From: a virus
Lineage: Duplodnaviria > Heunggongvirae > Uroviricota > Caudoviricetes
Strand: one strand, 5' to 3'
Length of the DNA: 64,000 bases
IMG/VR virus record: IMGVR_UViG_2724679237_000005
Span: 32,001 to 96,000 of that record
Positions 5,100-45,708 of this stretch are shown piece by piece. A program made the translations under genes and the position numbers. Within the stretch, counting starts at the first letter, position 1, and every line of letters starts with the position of its first letter. A model generated the notes under the pieces. The model was not told the DNA's origin. It saw nothing but the letters and a program-made list of their open reading frames with translations, and did no database searches.

Positions 5100-5129
5100 G
5101 TGTTTTTCCTTTTGTTTTTTGATGTGTTT

Positions 5130-5148
5130 AAACAAGTTGTTATCTTAT
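5130..5148 (-). promoter_or_regulatory. conserved palindromic element AAACAAnTTGTTnTCTTAT (site 1, upstream of nrdB)
   Basis: motif recurs at 23251, 29287, 42815, 45744. Confidence 0.5.
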
Positions 5149-5166
5149 TTGTTTAAACAAGGCTTA

Positions 5167-5199
5167 CAAATCAAAGAGAAGGTGGGGATACACCCCACC
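5167..5199 (-). terminator. terminator after nrdA
   Basis: stem ggtgggg/ccccacc, then T-rich tract on minus strand. Confidence 0.5.
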
Positions 5200-5204
5200 A
5201 TATG

Positions 5205-13036: not shown

Positions 13037-13235
13037 ATGTCATTTTTCTGTGATTGTTAGCCGAGGCAACGATAACCCACCAGGTGCGCCGAAGGTAGTA
13101 AATGCCTGTTTTAATTATTCACATATCCACAGGATAGATCCTAATAAAGAGATCCATAGATAGATCCTTGTATAGATCAAATAAGATCCCCGATCGCTGT
13201 AAGCCGCTCCACGACTGGTCTGAAGCCATGTTCAT

Positions 13236-13341
13236 GTATGCTGCCAGCGGTAATTGATAGTCTGTCAACGGTTCGCCGTATGCTGCCAACTGTTTTTGGT
13301 ATGCTGCCAGCGGCAAATCAAGTATGCTGTCAGCGGTTGAA
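13236..13341. repeat. upstream iteron set (4 copies of GTATGCTG(C/T)CAGCGG) of replication origin
   Basis: direct repeats at 13236, 13278 (degenerate), 13299, 13323 immediately 5' of repA. Confidence 0.7.
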
Positions 13342-13357
13342 TGACAAAGGTGTCCAC

Positions 13358-14452
13358 ATGTCCACAAAAAATAAAAAAGGTAAAAATAACAAAGAAGTAG
13401 AAGATAATCTCGACAACTTTGAAGAAGGTTCCCTTGAATTGTACACAGGGGAACTTGTCCCTAATAGCAACAATACAGTCCAACCAATTGCGTTGATGCG
13501 GCTGGGGTTGTTCGTGCCCACGCTCAAGGGGACAAAATACAGCAAGCGTAACAAGCCAAATGAGATCGATGCTTCAAAGGAGCTTGTTCAGCTCGAAGTA
13601 GCCCGTTCTGAAGGCTATTCCGATATCAAGATAACCGGTCCTCGTCTCGACATGGATCATGATTTCAAAACGTGGGTGGGCGTTGTGCGTTCGCTGGCAG
13701 AATACGGCGAACCTAACGGTCGTGTCGAGTTAAGCATCACGAAATTTGCGAAGTTTTGTGGCTATCCATCGTCACAGATCCGCAAAACACTCCGCGACCG
13801 GCTTACAAACAGTCTTTTGAAGATCATGCGTACAACTCTGTCTTTCCAGAGAACGTATGAAGAAAAGAACGTCGACGGCTCTAACAAGATCTCGCTTCTG
13901 ATGGTGCACCTCATCAATAGCGTGGACTACAACGAGCAGAAAGATACGGTGGTGTTCTATGCAGAACCGAAGCTGGCCGAACTATATCGCTTTGACCATA
14001 AGGTTCTTTTGCAGTTAAAGGTTATCAATAAGCTACCACGCAAAGAAACAGCACAGGCTCTGTACACCTTCATCGAAAGTCTTCCAACCAAGCCTGCGCC
14101 GGTATCGCTTGCTCGATTGCGTGCGCGACTCAATTTGAGTAGTAGGAATGTCAGCTCGCAGAATCAGACTATACGTAACGGCTTAAAAGCTCTCCAAGAT
14201 TTGGGCTATCTCGAATACAGCGAGATTAAGCGTGGGCGGTCGATCTATATCCAGATTCACAGCCGCAATCCAAAACTCAAAGTCGCACCGCCAAAACCTG
14301 AAGACATCGAACCCAAAAAACCAGATGAGAAAGCTGGGGAAATTGATGCCAAACAGAACATTATCAACAAGATAACCGAACTTTCGCAGAATTTGACGCC
14401 TGAAAATATCAAGATGATTGAGATCCTTTCCAATAGTCTCAAACTGCTTTGA
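13358..14452 (+). CDS. repA: plasmid-type replication initiator (RepA-like, iteron-binding)
   Basis: 364-aa ORF flanked on both sides by iterons; start set at ATG 13358 because ORF-track N-terminus overlaps the iterons. Confidence 0.65.
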   Translation: MSTKNKKGKNNKEVEDNLDNFEEGSLELYTGELVPNSNNTVQPIALMRLGLFVPTLKGTKYSKRNKPNEIDASKELVQLEVARSEGYSDIKITGPRLDMDHDFKTWVGVVRSLAEYGEPNGRVELSITKFAKFCGYPSSQIRKTLRDRLTNSLLKIMRTTLSFQRTYEEKNVDGSNKISLLMVHLINSVDYNEQKDTVVFYAEPKLAELYRFDHKVLLQLKVINKLPRKETAQALYTFIESLPTKPAPVSLARLRARLNLSSRNVSSQNQTIRNGLKALQDLGYLEYSEIKRGRSIYIQIHSRNPKLKVAPPKPEDIEPKKPDEKAGEIDAKQNIINKITELSQNLTPENIKMIEILSNSLKLL

Positions 14453-14985
14453 TATGCTGTCAGCGGTGAAATGTATGCTATCAGCGGCTATTTTTCTGAA
14501 AAGTATGCTGTGAACGGTTAAAGATATGCTACCAGCGGTATAGTGAGATGAACGTATGCTGTGAGCGGTAAATCATCTATCACCACTCAATGCTCTGTCA
14601 TACCTCCCCAGTGGTTACTAACCTCGAAGAGTGCATTCCATATAGGTTTGCGCTCACTAACATTCTATTGCTATTGCGCTGATTGCTTGTAGTGAAAGGC
14701 ATTTATTGCCTGCTGCTCCTGATAGAACGTATGCTGTCAGAGGTGTTTTATTGAGGAATTTTTGTTTGGATATGCTATCAGCGGTAATTAATGGCATATG
14801 TCAGACCTTCGTATGCTGCCAGCGGTAATTTTGTTCTGGTTATACCCATACCGGTACATATTATTCATGCAATGTCTTAAGTATGCTGTCAGCGGTAAAA
14901 AATCGAGTAAAGTATGCTGTGAGCGGTGAGATAGACTCTCGATATGCTATCAGCGGCAGTTGATTGTGTATGCTGTCAGCGGTGA
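14452..14985. repeat. downstream iteron array (about 12 copies of the same 15-bp iteron, irregular spacing)
   Basis: TATGCT(G/A)(T/C)(C/G)AGCGG copies at 14452, 14473, 14503, 14524, 14544, 14728, 14770, 14810, 14880, 14902, 14942, 14967. Confidence 0.75.
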
Positions 14986-21335: not shown

Positions 21336-22505
21336 TCACGTCTTAATAGTTTCTGCTACGTCGGCTAATATCGCTTCTAGTCGTTCTCCCTCTTCAGGTC
21401 TGAAGTAAAGAATGTTGGGGTTAAACCCGTAAAAGACAGTAACGTCAAGGTCTGGAAGATACTCCTTCCTGCCGACCAAATCGGATGGCTTGTTTTTGTT
21501 GTTAAACAATGCCGTTGCCCGGCTGCCACACGTCAGCACATAGGTCGGACGCACCAGATTGATCTCTTCACGTATAAAGTCGGTGAACTGGCCGATCTCG
21601 TCTTTGGTGTAGTCTTTTTCTTTGTCTTTAACCTTCTTGCAAACGCCTGTGACATAGAGATCGCCCATGCGTAAATCTCCAGCCGTCAATAGCTTGGCCT
21701 TAAAGTCGTCGTATCCGTTCTCCATAAAGTAACCGGTTCGAGCATCATTGCCGTTCGCATTGTCCAGAATGATCATGATTTTCGGCTTAATACCAATGCT
21801 GGGGCGGATTAGTTCATCACCTAAGCCCATTTCAGCCGCCATCCGCGTCATGAGTACGTTAATTTCAGCCGAACGTTTGGGGTTCATCTCAAACGAACGT
21901 GAGGCTTTAACTGCGTCTATGACAAGATTTCCCATCAATTCAGCCTGGTCGCGTAGGCGCTCTGGAGCAGTTGCTGGCAGACTACCTGGCTCGATGGATG
22001 CAAACGCCCCTACTTTTTGCAGCGATTCGCGCACTCGACTATTACAGGCACGTTTCTCGACAGCTTCTTCGAATTGCGCCAGTGACTCGAATTTGCCGCC
22101 AACTTTTTCTCGCGCTCTCATGATGGCTTGGCAGCCATTCTCAGAACACCCCTTCACAGCAGAGAATGGCGCATACAGCACCTGGCTGCCATCTTCAAGC
22201 GTGCGGATCTCGATTCGGTTAGATGACACGTTAACGTCTGGTGGCAATACGCGAATTCCATAGGTCAGCGCATCTTTAACCAGCCCTTGGTGTTTATCTT
22301 CGCCAAGAATAGTGAGAGCAGCAGCGAAAAACTCTGCGGGATAATGAGTTTTCAACCACATAGATTGATAACTGATTAAGGAGTAAGCAACAGAGTGTGA
22401 TTTGTTGAAGGCATACGCGCCGGATTTCTCAAACATATTCCAGATTTCTTCGGCTCGTTCGTGCGTCAGGCCATTGCTCTCTTCAACTACACTGGTAATT
22501 TTCAT
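21336..22505 (-). CDS. dnaE: DNA polymerase III alpha (DnaE-type) C-terminal fragment
   Basis: YAFNKSHSVAYSLISYQSMWLKTHYPAEFFAA matches DnaE segment following the fingers domain. Confidence 0.8.
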   Translation of the reverse strand: MKITSVVEESNGLTHERAEEIWNMFEKSGAYAFNKSHSVAYSLISYQSMWLKTHYPAEFFAAALTILGEDKHQGLVKDALTYGIRVLPPDVNVSSNRIEIRTLEDGSQVLYAPFSAVKGCSENGCQAIMRAREKVGGKFESLAQFEEAVEKRACNSRVRESLQKVGAFASIEPGSLPATAPERLRDQAELMGNLVIDAVKASRSFEMNPKRSAEINVLMTRMAAEMGLGDELIRPSIGIKPKIMIILDNANGNDARTGYFMENGYDDFKAKLLTAGDLRMGDLYVTGVCKKVKDKEKDYTKDEIGQFTDFIREEINLVRPTYVLTCGSRATALFNNKNKPSDLVGRKEYLPDLDVTVFYGFNPNILYFRPEEGERLEAILADVAETIKT

Positions 22506-23236
22506 TCAGTCACCTCATCAATCTTCACGAACTCATACCCATTGGAGGCCAGCCAGTCCCGCTGGCGCTCCCAGCTCCATACCTTTTCACGCATTTCGCT
22601 ATGCAGGCGAATGTGGGCGTCTTCTGGAAGTGCCACCAGATTCCCAGGGGCGTTATCTACCGTATCGCGGTTAATATGGTGGACATGTTCATCGTCACGT
22701 AGCTCCCGACCGAGACGTTCTTTCGCTATCAACCGATGAACGTATTCGTATTGCGAAACGCCATTGTTACCAACCAGCTGCATCATGTAGCCGTTGGTTT
22801 TTACGATGATGCCATCTTTGTAGTTGTTCGCTTCTTCTCCGATCTTTCCGCGTTTGGCAGCCGCCAGCTTTTCCTTCGTCTCCGCGCGGATTGTTCTGCC
22901 GGTTAGCTTTTTCGAAACGGTGGCCACTCGCTCATCGATATCAGCACGCAGACCGGCATTCCACGAGGTTTTCCCATACATAGGGTTGCCAGTGCCAGTC
23001 CGGGCTTCGGAGAGTCGCTTCATACGTTCGTCATTATTTTTGTTTTTGCCACGATTCCAGGCTGGGGTAGCGGAGATCCGCGCGTTTCCGCGCCTGATCC
23101 CCCATTTGGCTAATAAGCGGTCAATATTTGCCTTGCTGCAACCAGCTTCGGCGGCAATGTCTTCTTTTCTCATCAGGTCAACCATGTAACGCTGACGTAA
23201 CCATTCTTCTGTGATTTTGTACTTCGTACTCGGCAT
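22502..23236 (-). CDS. HNH homing endonuclease inserted between dnaE fragments
   Basis: C-terminal HNH motif (EHVHHINRD...N) plus NUMOD-like repeats. Confidence 0.75.
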   Translation of the reverse strand: MPSTKYKITEEWLRQRYMVDLMRKEDIAAEAGCSKANIDRLLAKWGIRRGNARISATPAWNRGKNKNNDERMKRLSEARTGTGNPMYGKTSWNAGLRADIDERVATVSKKLTGRTIRAETKEKLAAAKRGKIGEEANNYKDGIIVKTNGYMMQLVGNNGVSQYEYVHRLIAKERLGRELRDDEHVHHINRDTVDNAPGNLVALPEDAHIRLHSEMREKVWSWERQRDWLASNGYEFVKIDEVTE

Positions 23237-23250
23237 TTCTAAGACTCACT

Positions 23251-23269
23251 AAACAAATTGTTTTCTTAT
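23251..23269 (-). promoter_or_regulatory. same element, site 2 (upstream of HNH endonuclease gene)
   Basis: AAACAAATTGTTTTCTTAT. Confidence 0.5.
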
Positions 23270-23284
23270 CTTATAAATTAATTC

Positions 23285-25648
23285 TCAAATATCGAAGCTC
23301 GTTATGTCGGCATTTATTGCCATTGCTTCGGCATAAGTGCGACGCTCACCATCAGCACAAAGTAGGCGTGCTGCTTTATGGATTTTTCTCGTAGAACCGT
23401 CATCCAGTGACACTGTCACCCAGCCTTCCTCCGCTCGCTTAATGAAGTCGCCGCCAATGGATTTCATTTTCTCCATATCTTTTTTCCCGATCGCTTTCCT
23501 GACCGAGTCTGCTTCCGCCATTGAGAACCCCGCCAAGATTCGCGTAGCAGCCATGATCTGTTCCTGATAAATCAGAACACCGTTTGTGTCGCGAGAGATG
23601 TCGTCCAGCATAGGGTGTAAGGAATGTGGAGCCATGAAGCCTTTGGCCACGGAGACATAGTCGTCCAACATGCCGGATTGAATCGGGCCTGGTCGGAAGA
23701 GTGCGGTCGTGGCGACAACGGTCTTGAAGCTCATTGGCTCGATGCCACCGCCCAGATCTTTAAGCAACTTACGCATGGGGCCGGACTCCAGCTGGAATAC
23801 GCCCTGCGTGTACCCTGCAGCGAACCCATCCAGAACCTTGCGATCGTCCAGTGGGATAGCGTCGAGATTGATATCTTCACCTGTGTTCTCTTTTATGTAG
23901 CGTTTTGCACTATCGAGCAAATCGAGAGTTGCCAGGCCAAGCACGTCCAGCTTAATTAGGCCCATAGCCTCGCAGTAACGCTTGTCAAATGCGATACAAC
24001 GCGCGTCACCACGTCGTTCAACCGGTGTACGTTCTGTCAGAGGAACACCTGCTACGATCATCCCTGCCGCATGTCTACCAAAGCCACGCATAAGGCTTTG
24101 TAACTTGCAGGCTGCATTGAATGCATCAGGATATTTTGTTGCGTATTTGTCGAGACTTGCCAGTTGTTCGCGCAGTTCTTCCAATGGAAGGCTATCATCC
24201 TCAGCGTTCTTCAGTTCTTTTGATACCGCCATATCTGCGGACTCCACACCATAAATACGAGCGGTGTCACGTAGTGCAGAGGCTGCGCCCAGGTAGGTGA
24301 AGTTCGGAATGCCTGCAACGTAATCTTCGCCGTAGCGTTCATTCAGATACTCGATCACCTCATGGCGACGTGCCTGGCTGAAGTCCAAATCCGCATCTGG
24401 CAAGTCGAGACGCTCAGGGTTGATGAAACGCTCAAACAGAAGACCGTGACGGATTGGGTCGACGTTGGTTATGCCTATGCACCACGCCACCAGAGAACCG
24501 GCAGAGGAACCACGACCAGGCCCAACGGGAATGCCAGTTTCACGACTATGATTCATCAGATCGCGCACCATCAGGAAGTAACCACAGAATCCCAGGCGAG
24601 TCAGCGTGTCCATTTCGTACTTTAGCCGCTCAACATAAACCCTGTTCTCAGAAGCAGGTGGTGTGTATCCAAACTCTTTTGTGGTAAGACGTTTACGCAG
24701 CCCTGCAACAGCCAGTTTCATCAGCGTTGCAGGTTCGTCGTCTGCCATCTTGGGCAGTGCTGGTGGCAATTCATGCCAGCGCCATGTGCAGGAATCGATA
24801 ATGGTATCCTGCGTTGTTGAGGCCATTGCAGCTGTTACAGGCACATCCATGCGAACGGAGAAGGCTTTAAGCGCCTCAAGGAGATGGCGGCGACCATTGA
24901 CGGCGTTATCTCGCTGGTGGGGGATACGCAGACGATGCGGCTGGTCGATTTTGATGTTGTTCGTAACCATGTGCGCAATGTCTTTAATGTCTGCATCGTC
25001 GATCGATTCGTAATAAGCGGGATAGAACGCCACTGGCTCTATTTTCAATGCGCTGGCGACTTTCATCGCCCGGACGTTAATCTGGTCGTAGAATGGGGTA
25101 GGGTGCGGATAAACCACACTATAGAAGTTGTCTTTTCCACCCGCTGTAATCAGTGTGCTTATGATTTTTGCAAAATCGTTGCGTTGGAACACGCTACCGA
25201 TGTCGGAAGTAAGCAGGATGATGTTGCCTTTGGCATATGTAGAAACCAACTGTTCGAGCGAGAGACGCGGTACAAAGTAGAACTGTTCTCGTGTGTTGGC
25301 CGCCGTCATTAGTTCGCAGATGTCGCGATATCCTTGCTCATTTTTAATTAGAGCGGTAAACGAGTAGTTACGTCCCCGCTCTAATGATTCCATACATCTC
25401 ATAGATTCTTTAGCAAGTTTAGCCCGGTGCTCGTATGTGGGATCATCAACAATGTTTAGTTTCACACCACAAATAACCGCCATGTCGTCACCAGCGGCAC
25501 GTTGTAGTGGAATAACGCTCGCAATATTCATGCTATCTGCTGAAATTACAGCGGTGTAGCCAGCTTCTCTGGCAATCTTCACCGCGTTTTCTGCTTTTAG
25601 AGCCGACTCCCCAAGTGAGAAGTCAGTTCGAACCATCAGTGCCTTCAT
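23285..25648 (-). CDS. dnaE: DNA polymerase III alpha (DnaE-type) N-terminal fragment (PHP, palm, fingers)
   Basis: GFCGYFLMVRD, PVGPGRGSSAGSLVAW, FQLESGPMRKLL, LFRPGPIQSGM, IYQEQIMAA align to DnaE. Confidence 0.85.
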   Translation of the reverse strand: MKALMVRTDFSLGESALKAENAVKIAREAGYTAVISADSMNIASVIPLQRAAGDDMAVICGVKLNIVDDPTYEHRAKLAKESMRCMESLERGRNYSFTALIKNEQGYRDICELMTAANTREQFYFVPRLSLEQLVSTYAKGNIILLTSDIGSVFQRNDFAKIISTLITAGGKDNFYSVVYPHPTPFYDQINVRAMKVASALKIEPVAFYPAYYESIDDADIKDIAHMVTNNIKIDQPHRLRIPHQRDNAVNGRRHLLEALKAFSVRMDVPVTAAMASTTQDTIIDSCTWRWHELPPALPKMADDEPATLMKLAVAGLRKRLTTKEFGYTPPASENRVYVERLKYEMDTLTRLGFCGYFLMVRDLMNHSRETGIPVGPGRGSSAGSLVAWCIGITNVDPIRHGLLFERFINPERLDLPDADLDFSQARRHEVIEYLNERYGEDYVAGIPNFTYLGAASALRDTARIYGVESADMAVSKELKNAEDDSLPLEELREQLASLDKYATKYPDAFNAACKLQSLMRGFGRHAAGMIVAGVPLTERTPVERRGDARCIAFDKRYCEAMGLIKLDVLGLATLDLLDSAKRYIKENTGEDINLDAIPLDDRKVLDGFAAGYTQGVFQLESGPMRKLLKDLGGGIEPMSFKTVVATTALFRPGPIQSGMLDDYVSVAKGFMAPHSLHPMLDDISRDTNGVLIYQEQIMAATRILAGFSMAEADSVRKAIGKKDMEKMKSIGGDFIKRAEEGWVTVSLDDGSTRKIHKAARLLCADGERRTYAEAMAINADITSFDI

Positions 25649-29830: not shown

Positions 29831-30217
29831 ATGTCTGACAACAAGATTGAATTTATAGAAAGTCGCTATGCTGCTTTTATCGCAGGGCTGATTGAATCCT
29901 CACCTATGAGTCAGGCCCAAATAGCCAGACTTATTGGTTATAAAAATGCCAACAACCTTTCTTTAATTAAAAGTGGCAAAATTCCTTTGCCTATCGATAA
30001 GGTTCGTCCGCTGGCGCTGGCGCTGGGTATTGAGCCAAGTCGTCTTATGATGATGGTGCTGGAAGAACGCCAACCTGAACTCGCAGCATTTTTATACAAA
30101 GAAGGCACCGCTCCTCTTAACGAGGACGAAAAACAGGTTCTTGCTGCATATAACGAGCGATTCGGTAAAGAGAAAGGCGCATCACAAAAGGTTGTTGAGG
30201 CCATAAAGTCTCTATGA
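29831..30217 (+). CDS. XRE-family helix-turn-helix transcriptional regulator
   Basis: SQAQIARLIGYKNANNLSLIKSGK HTH; convergent with recombinase gene. Confidence 0.7.
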   Translation: MSDNKIEFIESRYAAFIAGLIESSPMSQAQIARLIGYKNANNLSLIKSGKIPLPIDKVRPLALALGIEPSRLMMMVLEERQPELAAFLYKEGTAPLNEDEKQVLAAYNERFGKEKGASQKVVEAIKSL

Positions 30218-31315
30218 AAAATTTACACGAATAAGCTCTGTTGATAGACGATCTCCCTTGAATTTGTGGTCAATTTCGTCTAAATCCGGTTGCTCTACGA
30301 TTGATGCGATGTACGTCGAGAAACTTTCTAAGGCGTCTCGCATCTCGTCCATATAATCGTGCCGGTCGTAGACCCGATCTATCCCCTCAAGACTGTGGTT
30401 CATGATTTTGCGTGATACCTCCTGGCTTATGCCTAATGCTGGGAAGTAACTACGCGCAGTACGGCGCAAATCTCGGGGTGTAAATGGCTCAAGCTCCATC
30501 AGTTCTGGTCGTTCCAGAATACGACGTAATGCCTGGGCTATTGCCACTTTAGACATAGGAAGGTCTTTCCCGATTTTTTTATTCGAAGGCACGAGCCACT
30601 GGCTATCTTTACCGTATTCGAACAACTCTTCAATGCATGTGCGCATTAATGTGCTTAAAGGCAGCGAATGCTCACGTGCTGACTTGTTTCTTTTGCCTTG
30701 ATTCCAAACCCCACGCTTAAGATTGAACTCACTTTTTTTAGCCCGCAGTACTTCGTCAGGTCGTCTTGCTGATACAAGACACAGCCTGGCCGCCCATTTT
30801 GTACCAGCGCACACATTGAAGTAGTCCCATATATTCCAGAACACCCATACCTCTGCGTCGGTCAGCTTCCGCTCGCGAGGTGTGGGCTTTGCGCCACCGG
30901 CAACTTTGTTTAGTGACATATCGTTTAACGGTGACACGTCTATCATTCCCTGGAAGGCGCACCAGCTAAGGAACTGCTTCATCAGAGAGAAAACGCGGCG
31001 GCCCATAACAATTTTGCCATCCAGTATTAGTGGGTTGACCAGTTGGTTCACCATGAACCTATTAATGTCACTTACTTTTACATCGGCAATGTGCGGCAAA
31101 ACATGTATCAAAATACAATGAACAGCGATCTCTGGCCGACGTCTTGTTATCAGCAGAGATAAGCGAGTGAATAACATGAATGCGTCCGAGAATCTCATGT
31201 CATTGCTGACCTGGGAGATCATAACGGCCTGCATTTGAGATGCTCTTTCGAGATACTCAATCGCCTCTTTTGAGGTGTTCTCCGCAGCGCGTGCTCTGTC
31301 AAAGCTATTTTTCAT
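30212..31315 (-). CDS. tyrosine site-specific recombinase (integrase or resolvase)
   Basis: C-terminal catalytic region with LRRTA, NHS and YDRHDY (R-H-R-Y family layout). Confidence 0.85.
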   Translation of the reverse strand: MKNSFDRARAAENTSKEAIEYLERASQMQAVMISQVSNDMRFSDAFMLFTRLSLLITRRRPEIAVHCILIHVLPHIADVKVSDINRFMVNQLVNPLILDGKIVMGRRVFSLMKQFLSWCAFQGMIDVSPLNDMSLNKVAGGAKPTPRERKLTDAEVWVFWNIWDYFNVCAGTKWAARLCLVSARRPDEVLRAKKSEFNLKRGVWNQGKRNKSAREHSLPLSTLMRTCIEELFEYGKDSQWLVPSNKKIGKDLPMSKVAIAQALRRILERPELMELEPFTPRDLRRTARSYFPALGISQEVSRKIMNHSLEGIDRVYDRHDYMDEMRDALESFSTYIASIVEQPDLDEIDHKFKGDRLSTELIRVNFS

Positions 31316-31413
31316 ATGACAATCACCGAGTTACGCCGATGTACTGTATAAGTAAACAGTATATTAGGCATAGATTCTTATAGGATCAAGAGTAAAAGTA
31401 ACTCATTTTCAGT

Positions 31414-31446
31414 AATGATTCCATACATAGTAGGTATGGAATCATT
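31414..31446. promoter_or_regulatory. lox-like site: perfect 13-bp inverted repeats AATGATTCCATAC/GTATGGAATCATT around a 7-bp spacer
   Basis: read directly; lies about 100 bp upstream of the tyrosine recombinase start. Confidence 0.6.
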
Positions 31447-31525
31447 TAGACGTTGTTTTTTGAATTTTAAGGGAAACAGGAGTGAGTTTGGTGGGAATAA
31501 AAACGGCTCCTGTGAGCCGTTTAAA

Positions 31526-31771
31526 TCAGAGGGTGCTGACGTATGCAGCCAGTTCTGTGTATCCGCCAATCGGTTGGCCATCGATCAGTACCTGGGGGAT
31601 AGTCTCTACCGGTTTACCAACAATTTCACTAAGTTTTTCCTTGTCGATACCGGCAGTGGTGATGTCGATGTACTCATAATCACCGTAGCCATGTCCCTTT
31701 AGTTGCTTCGCCAGCTCGACCGCACGTTTGCAGTATGAGCAGTTATCTCGTCCGTAGATAGTGATCGTCAT
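31526..31771 (-). CDS. glutaredoxin
   Basis: TIYGRDNCSYCKRA CxxC motif and GKPVETIPQVLIDGQPIGGY; start at internal ATG with GAGGT RBS. Confidence 0.8.
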   Translation of the reverse strand: MTITIYGRDNCSYCKRAVELAKQLKGHGYGDYEYIDITTAGIDKEKLSEIVGKPVETIPQVLIDGQPIGGYTELAAYVSTL

Positions 31772-31945
31772 TGTTACCTCATAGAATTGATATGCAACTT
31801 TACTTACAAAGAAGATAGGTATGTGCATACTTATCATTGCAGTCTGCATTATAAAGCTATTAAAGCCTCGATCAATCTATTAATTAAGGCATTGTTTGGT
31901 TAACATTACCCTAATATTTTATAGTTAGTAGAGTGAAATACATAC

Positions 31946-33208
31946 ATGCCTTTTTTAATTTTCATTATTATACTACTGCTCACCGTGATTTTTTGGGATT
32001 GGGTTGTTTTAAATGGTCAAATTGTTGGAACATTGGCTACAGCATTTGCTTTTATAGCAACAGCATGGAATGCCTACGAAGCGAGAAAAAGTGCAAAAGC
32101 AGCTTTTTCAGCCCTTCAATTAACAACAGAATCATTGTTCGAAATGCGAAAGAGTGCATTTAAACAATGGTTTGATTCCTTATTAAATCAACATGATGAG
32201 CTATGTCTTCTTGCAAAACAAATTATCGATAAACGCAAAGTTAATTTAAACAGCGATGAGTTACATAGACTATATTACCCATTGGTAAAACAGCATGAGG
32301 TAATACAGTATGTGAAGCATATTATTAATATTTTTGAGTATGTGGATAGTTCATTTTATATTGATGGGGAATGTCTAAAGGAAAAAAGAGCGTATGTGTC
32401 ACAATTAATTTTCAAAATCCCACCTCAGATGAAGTTGATCATTGCTATCTTTGGATTAAAAATCGATTATTGTGAACATATTAATTCGGGAAAACTGTGT
32501 TGTTTATTGAATAAATATGATTTTTTCAATGATGAAATATTTTTTGATGATGCTTATTCAGATATGCCTTATCTGGATGCATTCATAAACCTTAGATTCA
32601 ACAAAATATTCAAATCTCGAATGATAAATTATTTTGATAATATCATTAAAAGTTATTATGTTCCATCGGACGTTAAAAGGGACTGGATGTTTCGAAACCC
32701 AAAGCTCGTGCCGTCGGTTCTTATGAATTATAAAACTCCTTGTTCTCCTATAATTAATGATTACTTTGAGAAGTTGCCTTTACATGTAAGAAACTACTTT
32801 GAGGAACTACTTAAAACCGCGAATGATAGAGTTACTCATTTTGACGTTTACATCCCACGCCTTATTGGTTGTTCAATCGTGCAACATTACGAAGATGTGC
32901 CTTCCGAAAAAAACAGGTTAAATGACAGGAATGATGTAATAGCTATGGCTGAAGATTACATCGAGAAAAGAAAATATAATCAACTGGATTACATACTTGA
33001 AGATATATACTTCAAGAGTGACGAAGATATAATCCCTGGCCACCATTTGATTGTGGCATTTGATGACTATGAATTTAAATTATCACTCATTAAGATAAAT
33101 GAGAATAAAGATAGCGATAATCTTTTAAATCGAATTTATACTGAATCCAGTAGCATGGTTAAAGAATATAAGCGCGAAATATTAAAACTGGGCGACTATG
33201 TAAAGTAA
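31946..33208 (+). CDS. membrane-anchored protein of unknown function in AT-rich island (candidate defence or exclusion protein)
   Basis: 420-aa ORF, two N-terminal hydrophobic helices, strongly AT-rich versus surroundings, own terminator. Confidence 0.6.
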   Translation: MPFLIFIIILLLTVIFWDWVVLNGQIVGTLATAFAFIATAWNAYEARKSAKAAFSALQLTTESLFEMRKSAFKQWFDSLLNQHDELCLLAKQIIDKRKVNLNSDELHRLYYPLVKQHEVIQYVKHIINIFEYVDSSFYIDGECLKEKRAYVSQLIFKIPPQMKLIIAIFGLKIDYCEHINSGKLCCLLNKYDFFNDEIFFDDAYSDMPYLDAFINLRFNKIFKSRMINYFDNIIKSYYVPSDVKRDWMFRNPKLVPSVLMNYKTPCSPIINDYFEKLPLHVRNYFEELLKTANDRVTHFDVYIPRLIGCSIVQHYEDVPSEKNRLNDRNDVIAMAEDYIEKRKYNQLDYILEDIYFKSDEDIIPGHHLIVAFDDYEFKLSLIKINENKDSDNLLNRIYTESSSMVKEYKREILKLGDYVK

Positions 33209-33223
33209 ATTGCACTGTTCAAC

Positions 33224-33255
33224 AAAAAAGGGGCCGAAGCCCCTTTGAATTTTGC
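33224..33255 (+). terminator. rho-independent terminator (bidirectional character)
   Basis: stem ggggc/gcccc with cgaa loop, flanked by A-run and T-run. Confidence 0.6.
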
Positions 33256-33320
33256 GCTGAAAAAAGTGTTGCTAGGATGTTAGCAAGCTATGGTTAAGAA
33301 CGTCTGCCGTAATTATCTAT

Positions 33321-33398
33321 CACAGCGTTGAGCGGTCTGGTTTATGTTAGCGGAGTCTTAATCGAGTTGATTAAAAGGCCAAACCGCTCAACGCTGTG
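33321..33398. repeat. 16-bp inverted repeat (cacagcgttgagcggt / accgctcaacgctgtg) with about 46-nt loop abutting tRNA-Ser 3' end
   Basis: read directly. Confidence 0.4.
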
Positions 33399-33400
33399 TC

Positions 33401-33487
33401 TGGCGGAGAGTAATGGAATCGAACCATCATCGTTTGCACAATGGGACGGTTTTCAAGACCGCTTGAGCACCATGCTCCCTACTCTCC
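33401..33487 (-). tRNA. tRNA-Ser (anticodon UGA), type II with long variable arm
   Basis: hand-folded cloverleaf: acceptor GGAGAGT/ACTCTCC, anticodon loop CTTGAAA, T-loop GGTTCGATTCC, encoded CCA. Confidence 0.75.
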
Positions 33488-33807
33488 AGCTATTGTGATG
33501 GTCGGTGCTGAACTCCGACACAGGGTTGTAGCAAGCCCCGCAAAGCGCGCACTACTGTAGTTGCGGCACATCAGCCTGTGCATTCATCACAATGGTAAGA
33601 TCACTACCTTTCGACCAGTCATTGTGCACATGAACGACGATTAACCGTAATGATATTATCGTTGTGTTGTGAAGCCAGATGCTTATCTTCTGGTTGCTTC
33701 AAAGAGCTGCACTTCCTCACAACGGTAAGAGCACTGGTCTGACTCTATCGATTTACGGCCTTGTGGGTCAGTATCGCCGATTCGCCCAATGCTCTTACCT
33801 GTTGTGT

Positions 33808-33883
33808 TGGTGCCGGTTAACGGACTTGAACCGCTGGCCATTCGCTTACAAAACGACTGCTCTACCAACTGAGCTAAACCGGC
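33808..33883 (-). tRNA. tRNA-Thr (anticodon UGU)
   Basis: acceptor GCCGGTT/AACCGGC, D-arm GCTCAGTTGGTAGAGC, anticodon loop TTTGTAA, T-arm AGCGGTTCAAGTCCGTT, CCA. Confidence 0.8.
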
Positions 33884-33887
33884 AATT

Positions 33888-33974
33888 TGGTGGGGAGTGA
33901 TGGAGTCGAACCACCCGAGTCGCCATGACAGTAGATTTACAGTCTACACCGCTACCTCTACGGACTAACTCCCC
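33888..33974 (-). tRNA. tRNA-Tyr (anticodon GUA), long variable arm
   Basis: acceptor GGGGAGT/ACTCCCC, anticodon arm GTAGA-CTGTAAA-TCTAC, T-loop GGTTCGACTCC, CCA. Confidence 0.7.
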
Positions 33975-33979
33975 TAAAT

Positions 33980-34054
33980 TGGCGATGGTGGGTGGATTCG
34001 AACCACCGACCAGTTGGTTAACAGCCAACTGCTCTACCGCTGAGCTACACCATC
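33980..34054 (-). tRNA. tRNA-Asn (anticodon GUU)
   Basis: acceptor GATGGTG/CACCATC, anticodon arm GTTGG-CTGTTAA-CCAAC, T-arm GGTGGTTCGAATCCACC, CCA. Confidence 0.8.
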
Positions 34055-34832
34055 AATTCAGCACTGCCAGTATTTATTACTCAACAGTGCCAATCGCGAC
34101 GGTTTAGTTTCTGCCAGGAAACGCACCGCTACTTGCACTTTTCGTTAGTGCCAGACGCTTTCGACTTCGCTCAATAGTAGAAGGCAAAATCTTTAAGTAG
34201 ATGATGTTTCTGAGGACAGCACCTACTTTGTAATTTATACAATGTGATGTATGGAATCATTTGTTGTGAAAACAGGCACCAATGGCAACAGTGGTTAAAC
34301 CTACACAACAATCCCGTCTTCACAACGTTGAGGCCACTACTCCGATTGAATGTTTGCCCAACATGTTACATATCAACGCTCGCCGGTATCTCTGTGAATA
34401 GAACCTTAGAATTGATAAAAATGTAATGGCCTCAACGTTGTGTGCTGGCTAACCATACCAGCCGGGCTACGTCGCCGCTTTTTAACCCAGTATAAACGAC
34501 ATAATTGAACAAAATGACGTAACAGGATGGGCGGTCAGTGGCTAAGAATCCGGGAGTCATATGGAGTTGAAAATATACCAACCGCCCATTCTGTTACTTC
34601 ATCGGAGGGAACATGAATGTTCCCTCCTGCGTTCTGCAATCACACTCGCTCAGTGTGTCCCATTTCGGTAACGAGGCTGGAAACTGACCTCGCTGGTGTT
34701 TGGCTTATTAGGCTACTGCCAGATAGACTTCTTCGTTTGCACTTGTATTTAAGTTCAAACAGTCGCGTCTCAACGAAAACAAAGTCATCTTATACATAAA
34801 AGATAAGTAAGTAAACACTTATCGCTGTGTTT

Positions 34833-35123
34833 TTATTCGGTTGTGACTTTTTTGATCAAGGCCACTCTACGACTAGGTGTTCTTGTGATGGTGGCAGTGA
34901 ATCGTTTCGCTTGGATAGTAATGGTTTCGTTCTCCTTAAGTTGCCCGTAGCGAGTTTCAACCAGGGTGCCAAGACGCCACAGACCATCATCGATACGTTT
35001 ATGACTAGCAAATTTAATCAGCAACAGTTTTACGACTAACTGACCTACGTAAAAGGCGAATGCGACTCCGGCCGCTAAGAAATAGGTGGCCAACCACCAT
35101 TCCCAAGAAGTTAACTTGCTCAT
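34833..35123 (-). CDS. membrane protein (N-terminal TM helix)
   Basis: 96-aa ORF, AAAGGTGA RBS, ATGA overlap with upstream small ORF. Confidence 0.5.
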   Translation of the reverse strand: MSKLTSWEWWLATYFLAAGVAFAFYVGQLVVKLLLIKFASHKRIDDGLWRLGTLVETRYGQLKENETITIQAKRFTATITRTPSRRVALIKKVTTE

Positions 35124-35272
35124 TTTTTCACCTTTGTTTCATGAACTACCCGATACACGCGCTTTCCGATGCACAGTGTTTTGGTTTTAAGTTCCTGCTT
35201 AATCAAATCACGACAGATGCCGAAGCCGATAAGGAAGCCACCCATAAAAGCCAATGAGATGTATGGAATCAT
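35120..35272 (-). CDS. small membrane protein
   Basis: 50-aa ORF starting MIPYI inside the GTATGGAATCATTT motif, AGGAG RBS 7 nt upstream, ATGA-coupled both sides. Confidence 0.4.
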   Translation of the reverse strand: MIPYISLAFMGGFLIGFGICRDLIKQELKTKTLCIGKRVYRVVHETKVKK

Positions 35273-35484
35273 TTCAACGCTCCTGACTCTACTAGTTGCT
35301 GTAGCAATACTTTCCCTTTATCAGTTAACTGGTAGTTGGCCGAACACTTCGTTTCAGAAACGTTTGCAACCAACCCTAACCGCTCTAACTTAGCCCGCGT
35401 TTTAGGCTTCCAGTACTCAGGGAACTCTGACCACTTACTGATTTCATGAAGTGTTTCCTTCTCCCGTTTACTTAATACGATCAT
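35269..35484 (-). CDS. hypothetical protein
   Basis: 71-aa ORF with strong AAGGAGA RBS. Confidence 0.5.
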   Translation of the reverse strand: MIVLSKREKETLHEISKWSEFPEYWKPKTRAKLERLGLVANVSETKCSANYQLTDKGKVLLQQLVESGALK

Positions 35485-35647
35485 CCTTAATCTCCTTCAC
35501 GGTGTTGGTTATTTCTACAATGCGATAAATACGACCGCGTCTTTCTATAACACCGCTTTTAATGTAGTCATTGATGCAACTGGACATCACCACAATACCT
35601 ATGAAAAAACCAACTGCTAAAAATGCAATCATCCAACCGAGCATCAT
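35471..35647 (-). CDS. small membrane protein
   Basis: 58-codon ORF with N-terminal TM helix; ATGATG start overlaps ligase stop. Confidence 0.35.
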
Positions 35648-36966
35648 TCTTTATCTCCGATTCGATCTTCTGTATCGCGTAAGCAACGCGGCCATTTCAG
35701 TCGTGGGTGGCGTAAGCTGCCATCCGGCGTTTTCTCGTGACAATGAACCTCGACAATACGACCACGGTACTTCTCTTTGTTGTTCCAGATCTCGTCCAGA
35801 TATTTATGCTTAATGCCGCTCGCACGAACAATCACACCGTTTTCAAGGCGAATAACAATTTTTCCAAGCGTGTTGGCAAAACCAGAGTCCGGGTCGCCCG
35901 GCTCAAAGTCGATAATTTCACCATCTTCTGAATCTTCGTCTTTTAACTTCCACCAGCTGCGGGTACGTTTAAACTCGTAAACAGAGTTCGGATCTTTGCC
36001 CATCTCCCCTTCTTCGTTATCGTCCAGGCGTTTCATGAAGCGTTCGATGAAGTCTTCGTGGCTATGGATGATATAGAACGGATGCAGGTGAATGTCTTGT
36101 GTGTAGCCTTCACTGCGATCGTTTTTGAACAACGCCACCAGCATAGCCAGGCGCTCTTTCAGCTTCATACCTGTCTTTGCATACTCTTTGGATTTAGCCT
36201 GTGCTCGCCATTCCGGTAGGAAGAAGTCGAAAACATGATAAATAGCGCCAATTGCCTGCACGTTCTTTTTGCGCAATGCAGATACGGACTGGTTAAATGA
36301 ACCGGCTGTTCCTTCACCATCGAAGAAGATGTGTTTGTGGCCTGAAAGTTTGCCTAATTCGAGCATGGCTGGCTTTAGGTGATCGAGAGACGTGATTGGA
36401 TTACCAGTACGAGAAAGGAAGTTAACCTCTTCCTCGTCAACAATAACCTCACAAATTACTCGCAAACCATCGAGCTTAAGGCTGCCAATCATCGGCCATT
36501 TGGCTTTAGGATTTGGCTTGAAGGGGTATTTGTCGCCTTTTTCTTTATACGGTGACGCCAGCTGCACCTCGAATTTCGGAATGGGATTTTCAAAAACCTT
36601 GTTGCATAGGCTAATCCCAACGCCAGCTTTCGGATCTTTTAAGAGGAAACGACGGAAGACGTCCTGCCCATCGGCGCACATTGACGCAACGATAGACTCA
36701 ACAGCAGCTATTGCTGCGTTCCCCGTCAGCTCGCGAGAGGCCAGCTTATTCAGTATATCAATGGCTTTTTCGTCACTAGGGACGGACTCACTAAGCGGCT
36801 CTGCCACTTTGTATTTCTTTACCCCAAAACGGATGAAAGGGTTGAGCATCAATGAAACCATGCTTTGCTCGAAGTCATCCATGTTGGCTAATGCCTCTTT
36901 TTTTGCATTGGTTCCCATAGCTTTCATTTCGTCCAGCTTATGCTTAAGTGCGATCAACTTTTTCAT
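35644..36966 (-). CDS. ATP-dependent DNA ligase
   Basis: KLDGLR (motif I KxDG), FDGEG, WWKLK motifs of nucleotidyltransferase ligases. Confidence 0.8.
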   Translation of the reverse strand: MKKLIALKHKLDEMKAMGTNAKKEALANMDDFEQSMVSLMLNPFIRFGVKKYKVAEPLSESVPSDEKAIDILNKLASRELTGNAAIAAVESIVASMCADGQDVFRRFLLKDPKAGVGISLCNKVFENPIPKFEVQLASPYKEKGDKYPFKPNPKAKWPMIGSLKLDGLRVICEVIVDEEEVNFLSRTGNPITSLDHLKPAMLELGKLSGHKHIFFDGEGTAGSFNQSVSALRKKNVQAIGAIYHVFDFFLPEWRAQAKSKEYAKTGMKLKERLAMLVALFKNDRSEGYTQDIHLHPFYIIHSHEDFIERFMKRLDDNEEGEMGKDPNSVYEFKRTRSWWKLKDEDSEDGEIIDFEPGDPDSGFANTLGKIVIRLENGVIVRASGIKHKYLDEIWNNKEKYRGRIVEVHCHEKTPDGSLRHPRLKWPRCLRDTEDRIGDKE

Positions 36967-43860: not shown

Positions 43861-44628
43861 ATGGACGATTTATCGGTATACGCGAGATCATTGGATAAGG
43901 CTAAATACTATGTTTACTGTCTCTATGATACAGAAGACAAGATGAAAAGACCGTTTTACATAGGAAAAGGCAAATCGACTCGTTGTCTCGATCACATCAA
44001 GTATCCCGATGACTCTCCCAAATCCATGCGGATCAAAGAACTTTTGGCTAATAAAAAATTAGGCATAGATATTCTTCGTCATGGTATGGATGAAACCACA
44101 GCCAAACTTGTTGAGGCGACATGCATCGACCTTATGGGGGTCGGAGAGCTTACGAATAAGGTTCGAGGAAGTGGTTCCATGATGGGCAGAATATCACTGG
44201 ACGCCTACCATCACTTAGTGCTGCAAGAGGAAACTGAAATTGCTCCTGAGCACGCCGGTCTTGCCTTCCTGCTAAACAGCACCTACAAGTCAGGAATGTC
44301 CGCTCTGGCATTATATGAAGCTACGCGTGGCGTATGGGCAAAGGTTCCAAGAGACGAGAATCTCAAATATGCCTACGCTACATATGGTGGGCTGATAATG
44401 GAAGTTTATCAGATTGAATGCTGGGTCAAAGCCGGTTCTCAGCAGTACTTTACAAGGGATATAGCTCTTGGCCCCGACACAAAACGTTATGAATTTGTTG
44501 GCAGAATAGCCGATGAGCATATTAGAAAACTGTATGTAGGCAAATTAATCAAGAAGCCACCAAGCTACGGTAGCCCTTTTGTGAAGGTTGGGATGGTTAG
44601 GACTGAACATAGTGTTAGCGCGGCATAA
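43861..44628 (+). CDS. GIY-YIG domain nuclease
   Basis: N-terminal YYVYCLYD...FYIGKGKSTRCLDH matches GIY-(8-10)-YIG-R spacing; plus strand. Confidence 0.6.
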   Translation: MDDLSVYARSLDKAKYYVYCLYDTEDKMKRPFYIGKGKSTRCLDHIKYPDDSPKSMRIKELLANKKLGIDILRHGMDETTAKLVEATCIDLMGVGELTNKVRGSGSMMGRISLDAYHHLVLQEETEIAPEHAGLAFLLNSTYKSGMSALALYEATRGVWAKVPRDENLKYAYATYGGLIMEVYQIECWVKAGSQQYFTRDIALGPDTKRYEFVGRIADEHIRKLYVGKLIKKPPSYGSPFVKVGMVRTEHSVSAA

Positions 44629-44645
44629 AGCTGACACTGTAGTTA

Positions 44646-44683
44646 TGCATTGGCGCAATGTACGCGCCAATGCATGATTTTTA
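44646..44683 (+). terminator. rho-independent terminator after GIY-YIG gene
   Basis: 12-bp perfect stem atgcattggcgc/gcgccaatgcat, 7-nt loop, T-run. Confidence 0.55.
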
Positions 44684-45040
44684 ACCTTTCTTCATCAACT
44701 CTCGTTTGATTTCATCGGTACGCATCGTGACATCGGCAGCGGTGATCGCCTCATTCAATTTCACGATGTCCTCGATTTCCTGCGGTGACTTCTCTGCCAG
44801 ATGGAAAATGGCTGCTCGAATCACGTCAGAACGAGTGAACTTCTCGAAGCGAGGGATGAACTTCATCATCTCCAGCAGTTCGAAGTATTCGTCCTCCAGT
44901 GACATTGTGCGGCTTTTAATTTTCTCTTTGCCACGAGTCGGGCGTCCCTGTGGTCTGACTGGTTGGCGCAAAGGAGTTGTGTTCTTAGCCGGTGCATCAG
45001 GCTCTTTGCGCTTTGCTAGGTCACCCATTTTCATGGACAT
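44681..45040 (-). CDS. ParG-like partition protein (putative ribbon-helix-helix)
   Basis: small basic protein immediately downstream of parA-like gene, start overlaps its stop. Confidence 0.45.
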   Translation of the reverse strand: MSMKMGDLAKRKEPDAPAKNTTPLRQPVRPQGRPTRGKEKIKSRTMSLEDEYFELLEMMKFIPRFEKFTRSDVIRAAIFHLAEKSPQEIEDIVKLNEAITAADVTMRTDEIKRELMKKG

Positions 45041-45708
45041 TATTCTTCTTCCTCCAGACTCAACAGATAATCTACAAATTCTTCAAACTCGGCTTCCGCC
45101 TTTTTGTCGCGCTCGCTACCGGTCATTTCAAAGATAGAACGACCAGACTCTTCCGCATCATCATAGACGTTGCGGTTATATAGATTGACTGGCGCAGACT
45201 CGATTCCAAACGTCTCAACAATCTCTTTAGCCGCCAGAATGCGAGACACTTGTGATGGCAAAGCCGGGCACTGGTTCATGACCGCGCGGACCTTCACTTT
45301 ATCGTTTACATTGCGAACATTGTCGATAATAGGATCGATGTCACGTAAAGATTTCAAATCACGACGCTTAGGACGCAGCGGGATAATGATAACGTCAGCC
45401 ATCAGCATCGCTTGTCGCTGAATTTCGGAGTCAAAGCCACCAGCATCTACCACTACATACTCAGCTCTACCCTGAAGCGATTTTAGGTGCTTAATGATGT
45501 CATCCTGAACGTATGCAAAAGGAATCAGCTCAAGGTCTTCGTTCTGTCGACGGTCTTCACACCAGCTCGTTGTCGTGCGCTGAATATCTATATCGGTGAT
45601 ATAAACCTTCTTCTTCTTTTTGACTTTCAGGCAAACGGCAATTTGCTGGGCAACGGTGGATTTGCCAGGCCCGCCCTTTGTGCCGCCAACCACAAAGATC
45701 TTGGTCAT
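45040..45708 (-). CDS. parA: ParA/ParF-type partition ATPase
   Basis: deviant Walker A GGTKGGPGKST, short type Ib form. Confidence 0.8.
   Translation of the reverse strand: MTKIFVVGGTKGGPGKSTVAQQIAVCLKVKKKKKVYITDIDIQRTTTSWCEDRRQNEDLELIPFAYVQDDIIKHLKSLQGRAEYVVVDAGGFDSEIQRQAMLMADVIIIPLRPKRRDLKSLRDIDPIIDNVRNVNDKVKVRAVMNQCPALPSQVSRILAAKEIVETFGIESAPVNLYNRNVYDDAEESGRSIFEMTGSERDKKAEAEFEEFVDYLLSLEEEE

Follow-up and report, generated by a model that had tools for sequence, protein, structure and literature searches.

The window analysed here is a 64,000-nucleotide stretch (positions 32,001 to 96,000 of IMG/VR virus record IMGVR_UViG_2724679237_000005) of an SSU5/pHCM2/pMT1-type phage-plasmid of the ~108-kb class; such elements encode their own replication functions beside a module for phage morphogenesis and genes for replication and partition as a plasmid. 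It carries a perfect 33-bp palindrome, designated site B (31414..31446), beside the tyrosine recombinase gene int (30212..31315, minus strand). The description that fits the pair best is that of a simple tyrosine-recombinase system, new and so far uncharacterised, which has a 33-bp site and is present on phage-plasmids and large enterobacterial plasmids. We consider it probable (roughly 70%) that the palindrome is the cognate core site of the recombinase, Int, and resolves multimers of SSU5/pHCM2/pMT1-type phage-plasmids and related large plasmids. The region was 96-98% identical to the Escherichia phage-plasmids CMS-2020a, Cyrano/pLF82, and PhiR41_1, and ~73% identical to Klebsiella phage-plasmids such as pJN2-26.

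Site B consisted of two 13-bp arms, AATGATTCCATAC (31414-31426) and GTATGGAATCATT (31434-31446), flanking the 7-bp spacer ATAGTAG (31427-31433), and lay 98 bp upstream of the int ATG. Both its sequence and its position agreed with the initial annotation of this DNA, which had described a perfect 13-bp inverted repeat with a 7-bp spacer about 100 bp upstream of the recombinase gene. It was the longest perfect short-spacer inverted repeat in the window, and when the window was simulated 200 times with a first-order Markov model, no perfect repeat with a spacer of 3-10 bp and arms of 13 bp or longer arose; the 13-7-13 repeat is not a chance feature. A half-site length of 13-16 bp and a centre-to-centre spacing of 20 bp fit the core sites of tyrosine recombinases, namely loxP, FRT, dif, and the lambda core. 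No further close direct repeats or arm-type repeats were seen around the core.

The int gene encodes a 367-residue protein with a two-domain, lambda-Int-core-like organization. Pfam Phage_integrase (PF00589) matched with 39.9 bits against a cutoff of 27.1 (4.7e-10), and Phage_int_M matched as well. The AlphaFold model (pLDDT 82.5, pTM 0.73) predicted a recombinase fold made of a core-binding and a catalytic domain, with the N-terminal 60 residues helical; neither PF13356 nor any other arm-binding domain was found in Int. A Foldseek search with this model returned the core-binding and catalytic domains of lambda Int as the best match (1z1b, E 2.6e-07; also 1z19), followed by Tn1549 Int, XerA, XerH, and IntI, with a probability of 1.00 for all of these, lambda Int included; the matches to Cre were far weaker (E 0.14-0.3). 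The single Int sequence matched no PDB chain at E up to 1, and the family profile gave only weak matches, one to XerH (80 residues, E 0.015) and others to SAM-like domains of integrases. A relationship to the P4/CP4-57-type integrases was indicated by a match to the NCBIfam PRK09692 domain (1.5e-08, far below its cutoff). When 25 homologues (43-87% identical to the window protein) were compared, R185, K211, R284, and Y316 were invariant and H307 was nearly invariant, the catalytic roles of these residues being assigned by motif position. The catalytic residues and the C-clamp two-domain fold place Int in the tyrosine recombinase superfamily. It showed no recognisable homology to Cre and its spacer has 7 bp rather than 8, so that it falls outside the Cre-type group (Cre, Dre, Vika, VCre, Nigri, Panto). 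The loxP/FRT-like geometry pointed out initially therefore holds for the mode of working and not for the family: judged from the model, Int is a lambda-Int-core-like enzyme that would work like Cre/loxP or like the single-recombinase Xer/dif systems.

Strong comparative evidence, which stops short of demonstrating catalysis, identifies the repeat as the cognate site of the adjacent recombinase. In eight phage relatives, both 13-bp arms were invariant, apart from one arm's outermost base in Klebsiella; the intergenic DNA around them had diverged and the sequence of the 7-bp spacer was variable. The repeat accompanied int through ten lineages, 20-120 bp upstream of the gene and with a spacer of 7 bp in each. 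The arm was GATTCCATAC where Int was at least 55% identical to the window protein and GACTCCAGAC at 44-50% identity (Xenorhabdus, Providencia, Pantoea, Erwinia, Rahnella), where both arms were altered symmetrically; Photorhabdus (Int 48%) had an intermediate form (GACTCCAGAT / GATTCCAGAC). In the first group, the outer arm positions had changed symmetrically, with the geometry kept, in Klebsiella pneumoniae pC714_2 (Int 59%; TGTGATTCCATAC-CTATAGA-GTATGGAATCACA) and in a Klebsiella oxytoca plasmid (56%; TTGATTCCATAC-TATATAA-GTATGGAATCAA). The second group comprised the syntenic phage-plasmids of Xenorhabdus (47%; GTGACTCCAGAC-TTAGTTA-GTCTGGAGTC) and Providencia (44%; ATGACTCCAGAC-TACATAG-GTCTGGAGTCAT), a 507-kb replicon of Pantoea vagans (48%; TGTGACTCCAGAC-TTATTAG-GTCTGGAGTCA), a 106-kb plasmid contig of Erwinia (50%; GTGACTCCAGAC-CTATTAA-GTCTGGAGTCAC), and a 221-kb contig of Rahnella (50%; TTGTGACTCCAGAC-TTAATAG-GTCTGGAGTCACAA). 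On the replicons of Pantoea, Erwinia, and Rahnella, for which the 8 kb to each side were covered, there were neither phage genes nor the helix-turn-helix (HTH) gene that neighbours int in the phage-plasmids. A 34%-identical integrase with a classical arm-binding domain, in a prophage-like context, had no such repeat. The arms thus change symmetrically as the enzyme changes, and since the repeat follows int, co-varies with it, and persists without the HTH gene, it behaves as the site of the recombinase, independent of the HTH protein. The initial proposal of a lox-like core site of the adjacent tyrosine recombinase is thereby borne out, the repeat being kept with the gene in 841 plasmid records and its arms co-varying at 44-100% Int identity.

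The spacer was free in sequence and constant in length. Few variants occurred in ~95 IMG/VR loci, in which the arms were again invariant, and among the 87 loci that could be oriented the spacer was ATAGTAG in 35, TTAATAG in 25, CTACCAA in 20, and CTTACAA in four, with three further variants at one locus each. TAG/CTA abutted one arm in every spacer, and which arm it was differed by lineage. In PhiR41_1, which is 97% identical to the window, the spacer was the exact reverse complement of the window's; there, the palindrome (86505-86545) was 4 bp longer on each side (CAGT...ACTG) and had a direct repeat of CATTTTCAG on both flanks, a structure that suggests a hairpin-templated flip or template switch. 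The reversed spacer indicates that its orientation relative to int is unconstrained, as expected for a resolution site, at which only identity between the partner sites matters.

The distribution of the module agreed with such a function. The block of int and repeat was present in 841 PLSDB plasmids from Klebsiella, Escherichia, Enterobacter, Yersinia (pMT1-type), Salmonella (pHCM2-type), and others. A search of 5,426 complete E. coli genomes found it at 255 places in 252 genomes, all 255 on plasmids and none chromosomal. The full site occurred once per complete genome in pJN2-26 and PhiR41_1. The arrangement, the same in all ten lineages, is that of the simple (Cre/Flp/Xer-like) sites, which have inverted arms flanking a spacer of 6-8 bp next to the recombinase gene; as for multimer-resolution systems, the full site is single in these two complete genomes and the module occurs on plasmids of different kinds. 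One site per genome, a module confined to plasmids, its presence on ordinary large plasmids, and the lack of an arm-binding domain favour multimer resolution over integration. In the proposed mechanism, one protomer of Int would bind each 13-bp arm, and strands would be exchanged across the 7-bp spacer. Recombination between two such sites, whether located on a plasmid dimer, on sister copies, or on terminally redundant ones, would yield monomer circles; circularisation of incoming DNA may be a further role.

Among known systems, the closest parallel in organization is Cre/loxP of P1, together with Dre/rox, Vika/vox, Nigri/nox, as well as Panto/pox, where a single tyrosine recombinase adjoins one simple palindromic site. 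Cre/loxP shares the 13-bp arms, the short asymmetric spacer, the life of a phage as a plasmid, and the expected functions of dimer resolution and circularisation, but it differs in that Int belongs to another protein family and has a 7-bp spacer, a LexA box at its promoter, and extra single half-sites. Published screens for Cre-type systems sought 13-8-13 sites (PMC10250229; PMC4957104). Lambda Int and the P4/CP4-57-type integrases are similar to Int in structure (lambda Int being the best match) and in the combination of Phage_int_M and Phage_integrase domains. The att cores of lambda have a 7-bp overlap region, like the spacer described here. Unlike these enzymes, Int lacks the N-terminal arm-binding domain (PF13356) that is present in the 26-34%-identical outgroup proteins P0114-P0120; there was no sign of chromosomal integration, and the core arms are not short and degenerate but long and perfect. 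XerH/difH, XerS/difSL, archaeal XerA/dif, ResD/rfsF of F, and Rsd/crs likewise combine one tyrosine recombinase with a near-palindromic site for dimer resolution. XerA and XerH were among the structural matches of Int, with low sequence similarity (as in the XerH profile match given above), but the site sequences of these systems are unrelated to site B.

The promoter region of int contained a putative regulatory element. A sigma-70 promoter was predicted on the minus strand (31361..31389), with the -35 hexamer TTGATC (31389..31384), a 17-nt spacer, and the -10 hexamer TAATAT (31366..31361); the hexamers were read from the sequence and scored 8/12, under the threshold of the scan tool, and an alignment showed both to be kept in the Klebsiella relatives. 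A LexA-type SOS box, TACTGTATAAGTAAACAGTA (CTGT-N8-ACAG; 31342..31361), overlapped the -10 hexamer and the start of the int transcript. It matched TACTG(TA)5CAGTA at 17 of 20 positions and was unique in the window, where 0 were expected. The box was present in all 86 loci of the four main spacer groups (35/35, 25/25, 18/18, and 8/8). It was conserved in the lineages of E. coli, Klebsiella, and pC714_2, but those of K. oxytoca, Xenorhabdus, and Providencia lacked it. Hence, int is probably under SOS (LexA) control in most lineages, and the overlap of box and promoter implies that the level of the enzyme should increase during an SOS response, at the time of recombination and prophage induction. 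Cyrano was induced 39-fold by ciprofloxacin (PMC9928086). In K. pneumoniae pRHBSTW-00472_3 (locus 5102-7300), the LexA box and the position of the inverted repeat were split apart by a group II intron encoding an ltrA reverse transcriptase/maturase, which separates int from its site.

The exact 13-mer arm was found three more times in the window as a single copy, at 25383 (plus strand), 34249 (minus), and 35261 (minus), with the extended form AATGATTCCATACATC. These dispersed half-sites and the LexA box were missing from the initial annotation, whose description of the repeat itself stands. At up to two mismatches, seven arm matches were found in the window compared with 1.95 expected, and five of the seven were exact. 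Half-site A (AATGATTCCATACATC; 25383..25398, plus strand) lies inside a dnaE-like gene, antisense to it. Half-site C (34246..34261, minus strand) is intergenic, ~190 bp upstream of a tRNA-Asn gene, at the far end of a variable cargo segment. Half-site D (35258..35273, minus strand) overlaps the stop codon of a 71-residue gene and the ATG and first codons of a 50-residue gene (35120..35272). All three point towards site B, and none has a second arm beside it. A degenerate copy (GATTCCAAAC; 30700..30709, plus strand) is located inside the int coding sequence, at -729 from site B; in the non-E. coli lineages, it is an exact GATTCCATACAT(C/T).

The arrangement of the half-sites was conserved and polar. 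The same positions were occupied in Klebsiella pJN2-26 (~70% identical), including the copy in the int coding sequence. In two complete genomes, four single arm copies were found per genome, none of them farther than ~6.3 kb from the full site in either direction; the ~98 kb outside these ~12 kb around the repeat contained none. In the ~95 loci (Int identity 59-100%), the left copies were all on the plus strand and the right copies all on the minus strand, so that every copy pointed at the repeat; C lay 1.2-6.7 kb from it and D usually ~1.0 kb beyond C. A Nissabacter-type phage-plasmid, retrieved by protein and not by motif, repeated the arrangement. The C-type single site of pC714_2 carried the same outer-base variant as its own repeat, and that of the K. 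oxytoca plasmid did not match its repeat. In these two plasmids (pC714_2 ~23860-23920; K. oxytoca plasmid ~35360-35420), the C-type half-site stood ~15 nt downstream of an apparent tRNA 3' end (GGTTCGAGTCCTGC...), which places it within the tRNA array and not upstream of it.

Conservation was examined at sites D and A. Site D had 14 of 16 positions invariant compared with 18 of 87 in its flanks, a partly circular count given that the loci were selected on a 10-mer motif. Site A was therefore recounted through a protein alignment of the dnaE N-terminus, and an identical 14-mer, TGTATGGAATCATT, encoding C-M-E-S-L, was found in 34 of 38 loci (18 haplotypes); the adjoining codons varied both synonymously and in amino acid, and the four most distant lineages had an unrelated peptide at this position. 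Because site A is frozen at synonymous positions within a variable peptide, the DNA site, and not the protein segment, is under selection. The conserved, polar, partly intragenic half-sites are a novel, unexplained element. The GACTCCAGAC clade had no single arm copies within 8 kb on either side of int and kept int and the full repeat, which marks the half-sites as an addition in one clade and not as part of the core function.

Several explanations of the half-sites were considered and rejected. The spacing of -35 and -10 elements was inconsistent among the sites (by eye), which speaks against promoters; for an RNA element, Rfam found only tRNAs, and the strand relative to transcription was inconsistent. 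A coding repeat (MIPYI...) failed as only D starts a real gene, and elsewhere the frames differ or stop immediately. An origin, terminus, or fork trap was not indicated by strand composition, the GC skew being negative throughout with no switch at the locus. Inversion or shufflon-like switching was rejected for lack of any rearranged arrangement in the ~95 loci, and deletion between sites because the distal flanks of B never equalled those of C or D. An origin as displaced copies of the right half of B was rejected since flank similarity did not exceed that of shuffles. Inspection by eye, with no formal test, gave no convincing match to host XerCD, IHF, CRP, DnaA, or Ter sites. Finally, the spacer of B and the spacer-side bases of the single sites shared only 2-3 of 7 positions, which makes efficient crossover with the full site seem unlikely.

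Two further recombinase systems offer partial parallels. In Tn4430 TnpI/IRS, among the nearest precedents, the same motif occurs in the inverted core and in extra single copies, as accessory motifs within a 116-bp site; unlike these, the single copies described here are kilobases away. The sfx sites of the R64 shufflon recombinase Rci have a 7-bp spacer and one conserved arm and recombine mutually, inverting segments, but no inversion was seen among our loci. We are aware of no plasmid or phage recombinase for which an oriented array at synonymous positions has been reported. By analogy, we tentatively suggest that the half-sites might bind recombinase monomers and have a non-crossover function, through a polar array converging on the resolution site. 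Such an array might conceivably block, unload, or orient replication forks, SMC/MukBEF-type loop extruders, or transcription, or control synapsis at a distance. A non-crossover, polar accessory role of this kind is plausible and unproven. The other nearest precedent, in the account of PMC11840125 (citing Karaboja et al. 2021), is that of XDS, the XerD-binding dif-like sites around the Bacillus subtilis terminus that unload Smc-ScpAB. As far as that account describes them, XDS resemble the half-sites in being recombinase-type sequences scattered around a resolution site, there with a use other than crossover, and differ in being chromosomal and spread over hundreds of kilobases, whereas the present four sites fall within 12 kb of a 108-kb plasmid, are strictly polar, and lie in coding sequence in two cases.

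Some observations weigh against a simple resolution function. The first His of the catalytic HxxR motif is an Arg in all family members (R281; RDLRRT), and the change may reduce or alter catalysis. Under LexA repression, little of the enzyme would be present while the plasmid is propagated normally, an unusual state for a housekeeping resolvase. The ~95 assembled loci contained no dimers, junctions, or BxB, BxC, or BxD products. The conserved single half-sites would be superfluous if the system did no more than resolve multimers, and they hint that it has another activity, in addition or instead.

These points bear on a second explanation, in which the site is mainly a binding platform: Int, with catalysis dispensable, would occupy the full site and the polar half-sites as a barrier, unloader, or regulator, for example by stalling forks, unloading or blocking SMC/MukBEF-type complexes, or blocking transcription, with XerD at XDS as the nearest analogy. 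The clustering of the four single copies around the repeat, their strict polarity, the freezing of synonymous positions inside dnaE, the family-wide His-to-Arg change, and the XDS precedent, as far as PMC11840125 describes it, all fit this explanation. We nevertheless regard it as rather improbable, given that the GACTCCAGAC clade dispenses with nearby single copies, that GC skew does not switch at the site, and that the catalytic Tyr, both Arg, and the Lys are invariant and the second His nearly so.

Multimer resolution also has to be weighed against a role in acquiring cargo. The segment between B and C (31447..34245) contains a glutaredoxin gene, a 420-residue open reading frame, and four tRNA genes in the window; in relatives, it measured 1.2-11.5 kb and had unrelated content. 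Homology among the relatives broke at 31445-31464, no more than 18 bp from the repeat's distal edge. Other cargo between B and C included morons, toxin-antitoxin genes, type I restriction-modification systems, and a colicin-type DNase with its immunity gene. CYRAN_43, a moron of this segment, was transcribed at 723 times background in the lysogen (PMC9928086). PhiR41_1 carried a wholly different block of ~5.9 kb between the full site and a single half-site that itself had novel flanks on both sides.

An integron-like capture, in which the full site beside int takes up circles that carry a one-armed site, would leave the full site, then the cargo, then a one-armed site with the conserved arm distal. 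The break of homology at the repeat, the exchangeable accessory genes, the bounded PhiR41_1 block, and the B...C...D geometry, which is what such integrations might yield, speak for capture. However, neither the flanks of C nor those of D (mean z 0.23 and -0.42) resembled B's distal flank, the spacer of B is today incompatible with those of the single sites, and inserts beside B ended at the glutaredoxin terminator and not at a half-site; A and D are inside genes, and the C-D spacing is constant at ~1.0 kb. Without flank homology, compatible spacers, or half-site-bounded inserts, the locus does not resemble an integron-like cassette platform, and capture is unlikely. The cargo variation is more simply explained if ordinary recombination uses the conserved site and the glutaredoxin gene as anchors.

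Further features of the variable segment were recorded. In PhiR41_1 (80095-86508), ~6.4 kb of other DNA, most of it the ~5.9-kb block above, encoding a GadW-like regulator, an 826-residue protein, and a transposase fragment replaced window positions 31447-36937 (ligase, small genes, tRNA cluster, glutaredoxin). The four tRNA genes of the window (33401-34054, minus strand) are Ser-TGA, Thr-TGT, Tyr-GTA, and Asn-GTT, and the annotated subsets differ among relatives (Ser, Thr, and Asn in Cyrano; Asn alone in pJN2-26). In Xenorhabdus, the direct neighbours of int are a cloacin/colicin DNase, accompanied by its immunity gene, and a ParE/Phd pair, and a CobS-like AAA ATPase of 773 residues (locus 12481-14802) has a LAGLIDADG_3 match, which points to an apparent intein. 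A semi-conserved purine patch followed by TTTTTTGAA(W)TCTGA was located 8-25 bp distal to the repeat (31447-31475 in the window, and in relatives), where it was kept even if the DNA beyond it was unrelated. It occurred in the phage-plasmid lineages (weakly in Xenorhabdus and Providencia) and not on the Pantoea or Erwinia plasmids, and could be the -35 element of a rightward cargo promoter or a site for an accessory factor.

A regulatory alternative takes the repeat as an operator for the HTH protein, or for another regulator, controlling int and a divergent cargo promoter. The HTH gene (29831..30217, plus strand; 128 residues) is convergent with int and encodes the putative lysogeny repressor of Cyrano, in whose lysogen it is expressed (PMC9928086). 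It is a conserved neighbour of int in the phage-plasmids and not part of the minimal module of int and site. The repeat lies ~22 bp upstream of the predicted -35 hexamer of int, and a dimeric regulator would likewise be compatible with invariant arms around a free spacer. Co-variation among the phage-plasmids is uninformative about the HTH protein as the binder; the question was settled by the plasmids without the HTH gene, where the repeat stays with int; the repeat also co-varies with Int. A contiguous half-site of 13-16 bp with 20-bp centre-to-centre spacing also seems atypical for a single-HTH protein of 128 residues, and the operator reading is quite unlikely. From the same position, Int bound at the repeat could regulate its own gene, and such autoregulation is possible and compatible with multimer resolution.

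Of the two roles suggested in the initial annotation, a dimer-resolution site and an attP core, the former is favoured. An attP core for integration into the host chromosome would suit a gene annotated as integrase and related to the P4/CP4-57-type enzymes by the sub-cutoff PRK09692 match, but it is very improbable: none of the 255 E. coli copies was chromosomal, Int has no arm-binding domain, no arm-type repeats were seen beside the core, and the elements carry plasmid replication and partition genes. The three marks of a lambda-type heterobivalent integrase/attP system (arm-binding domain, arm-type sites, and chromosomal copies) were thus all unfound in the material searched. A structural hairpin or intrinsic terminator with no protein partner, to which a T-run 8-10 nt past the stem in the phage-plasmid lineages might point, can practically be dismissed: the terminator scan found none, the T-run does not directly adjoin the stem and is missing from the plasmids of Pantoea and Erwinia, a separate minus-strand hairpin and T-run belong to the glutaredoxin gene (31497-31520; seen by eye, not reported by the scan), and the sequence itself is invariant across 73-100% identical relatives, where a stem needed only for pairing would tolerate compensatory changes.

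The pair is carried by hundreds of sequenced enterobacterial phage-plasmids, including those of the Yersinia pestis pMT1 and Salmonella Typhi pHCM2 types and resistance-carrying Klebsiella elements. Full texts containing the motif proved to be unrelated primer matches, and the literature searched on recombinases of phage-plasmids gave no account of the pair. If active, it would explain the monomeric state, and hence the stable inheritance, of these ~108-kb low-copy elements, and it would offer a compact pair of recombinase and 33-bp target unrelated to Cre, with at least two natural specificities (GATTCCATAC and GACTCCAGAC) for the study and engineering of target recognition; the site would also mark the edge of the elements' main accessory-gene hot spot. 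The polar half-sites raise a testable question, namely whether simple tyrosine recombinases have DNA-bound roles beyond crossover. If they do so here, the array would correspond to XerD/XDS on the scale of plasmids and phages, with a strict orientation and a place at synonymous positions of coding sequence.

Two further features of the window were noted. The dnaE-like gene is split (21336-25648) into an N-terminal part of 787 residues (23285..25648) and a C-terminal part of 389 residues (21336..22505), with a 244-residue open reading frame containing an HNH-type motif (22502..23236) between them. An intact gene of ~1172 residues is present in PhiR41_1 and pJN2-26, and the two-gene version occurs in pC714_2 and the K. 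oxytoca plasmid; the split looks like a homing-endonuclease insertion polymorphism. A second perfect inverted repeat, with 12-7-12 geometry (ATGCATTGGCGC-AATGTAC-GCGCCAATGCAT; 44645-44675), occurs as the sole copy in the window, with a plus-strand gene (43861..44628) on one side and the end of the minus-strand parA operon (44681..45708) on the other, where it could be a bidirectional terminator or a partition site.

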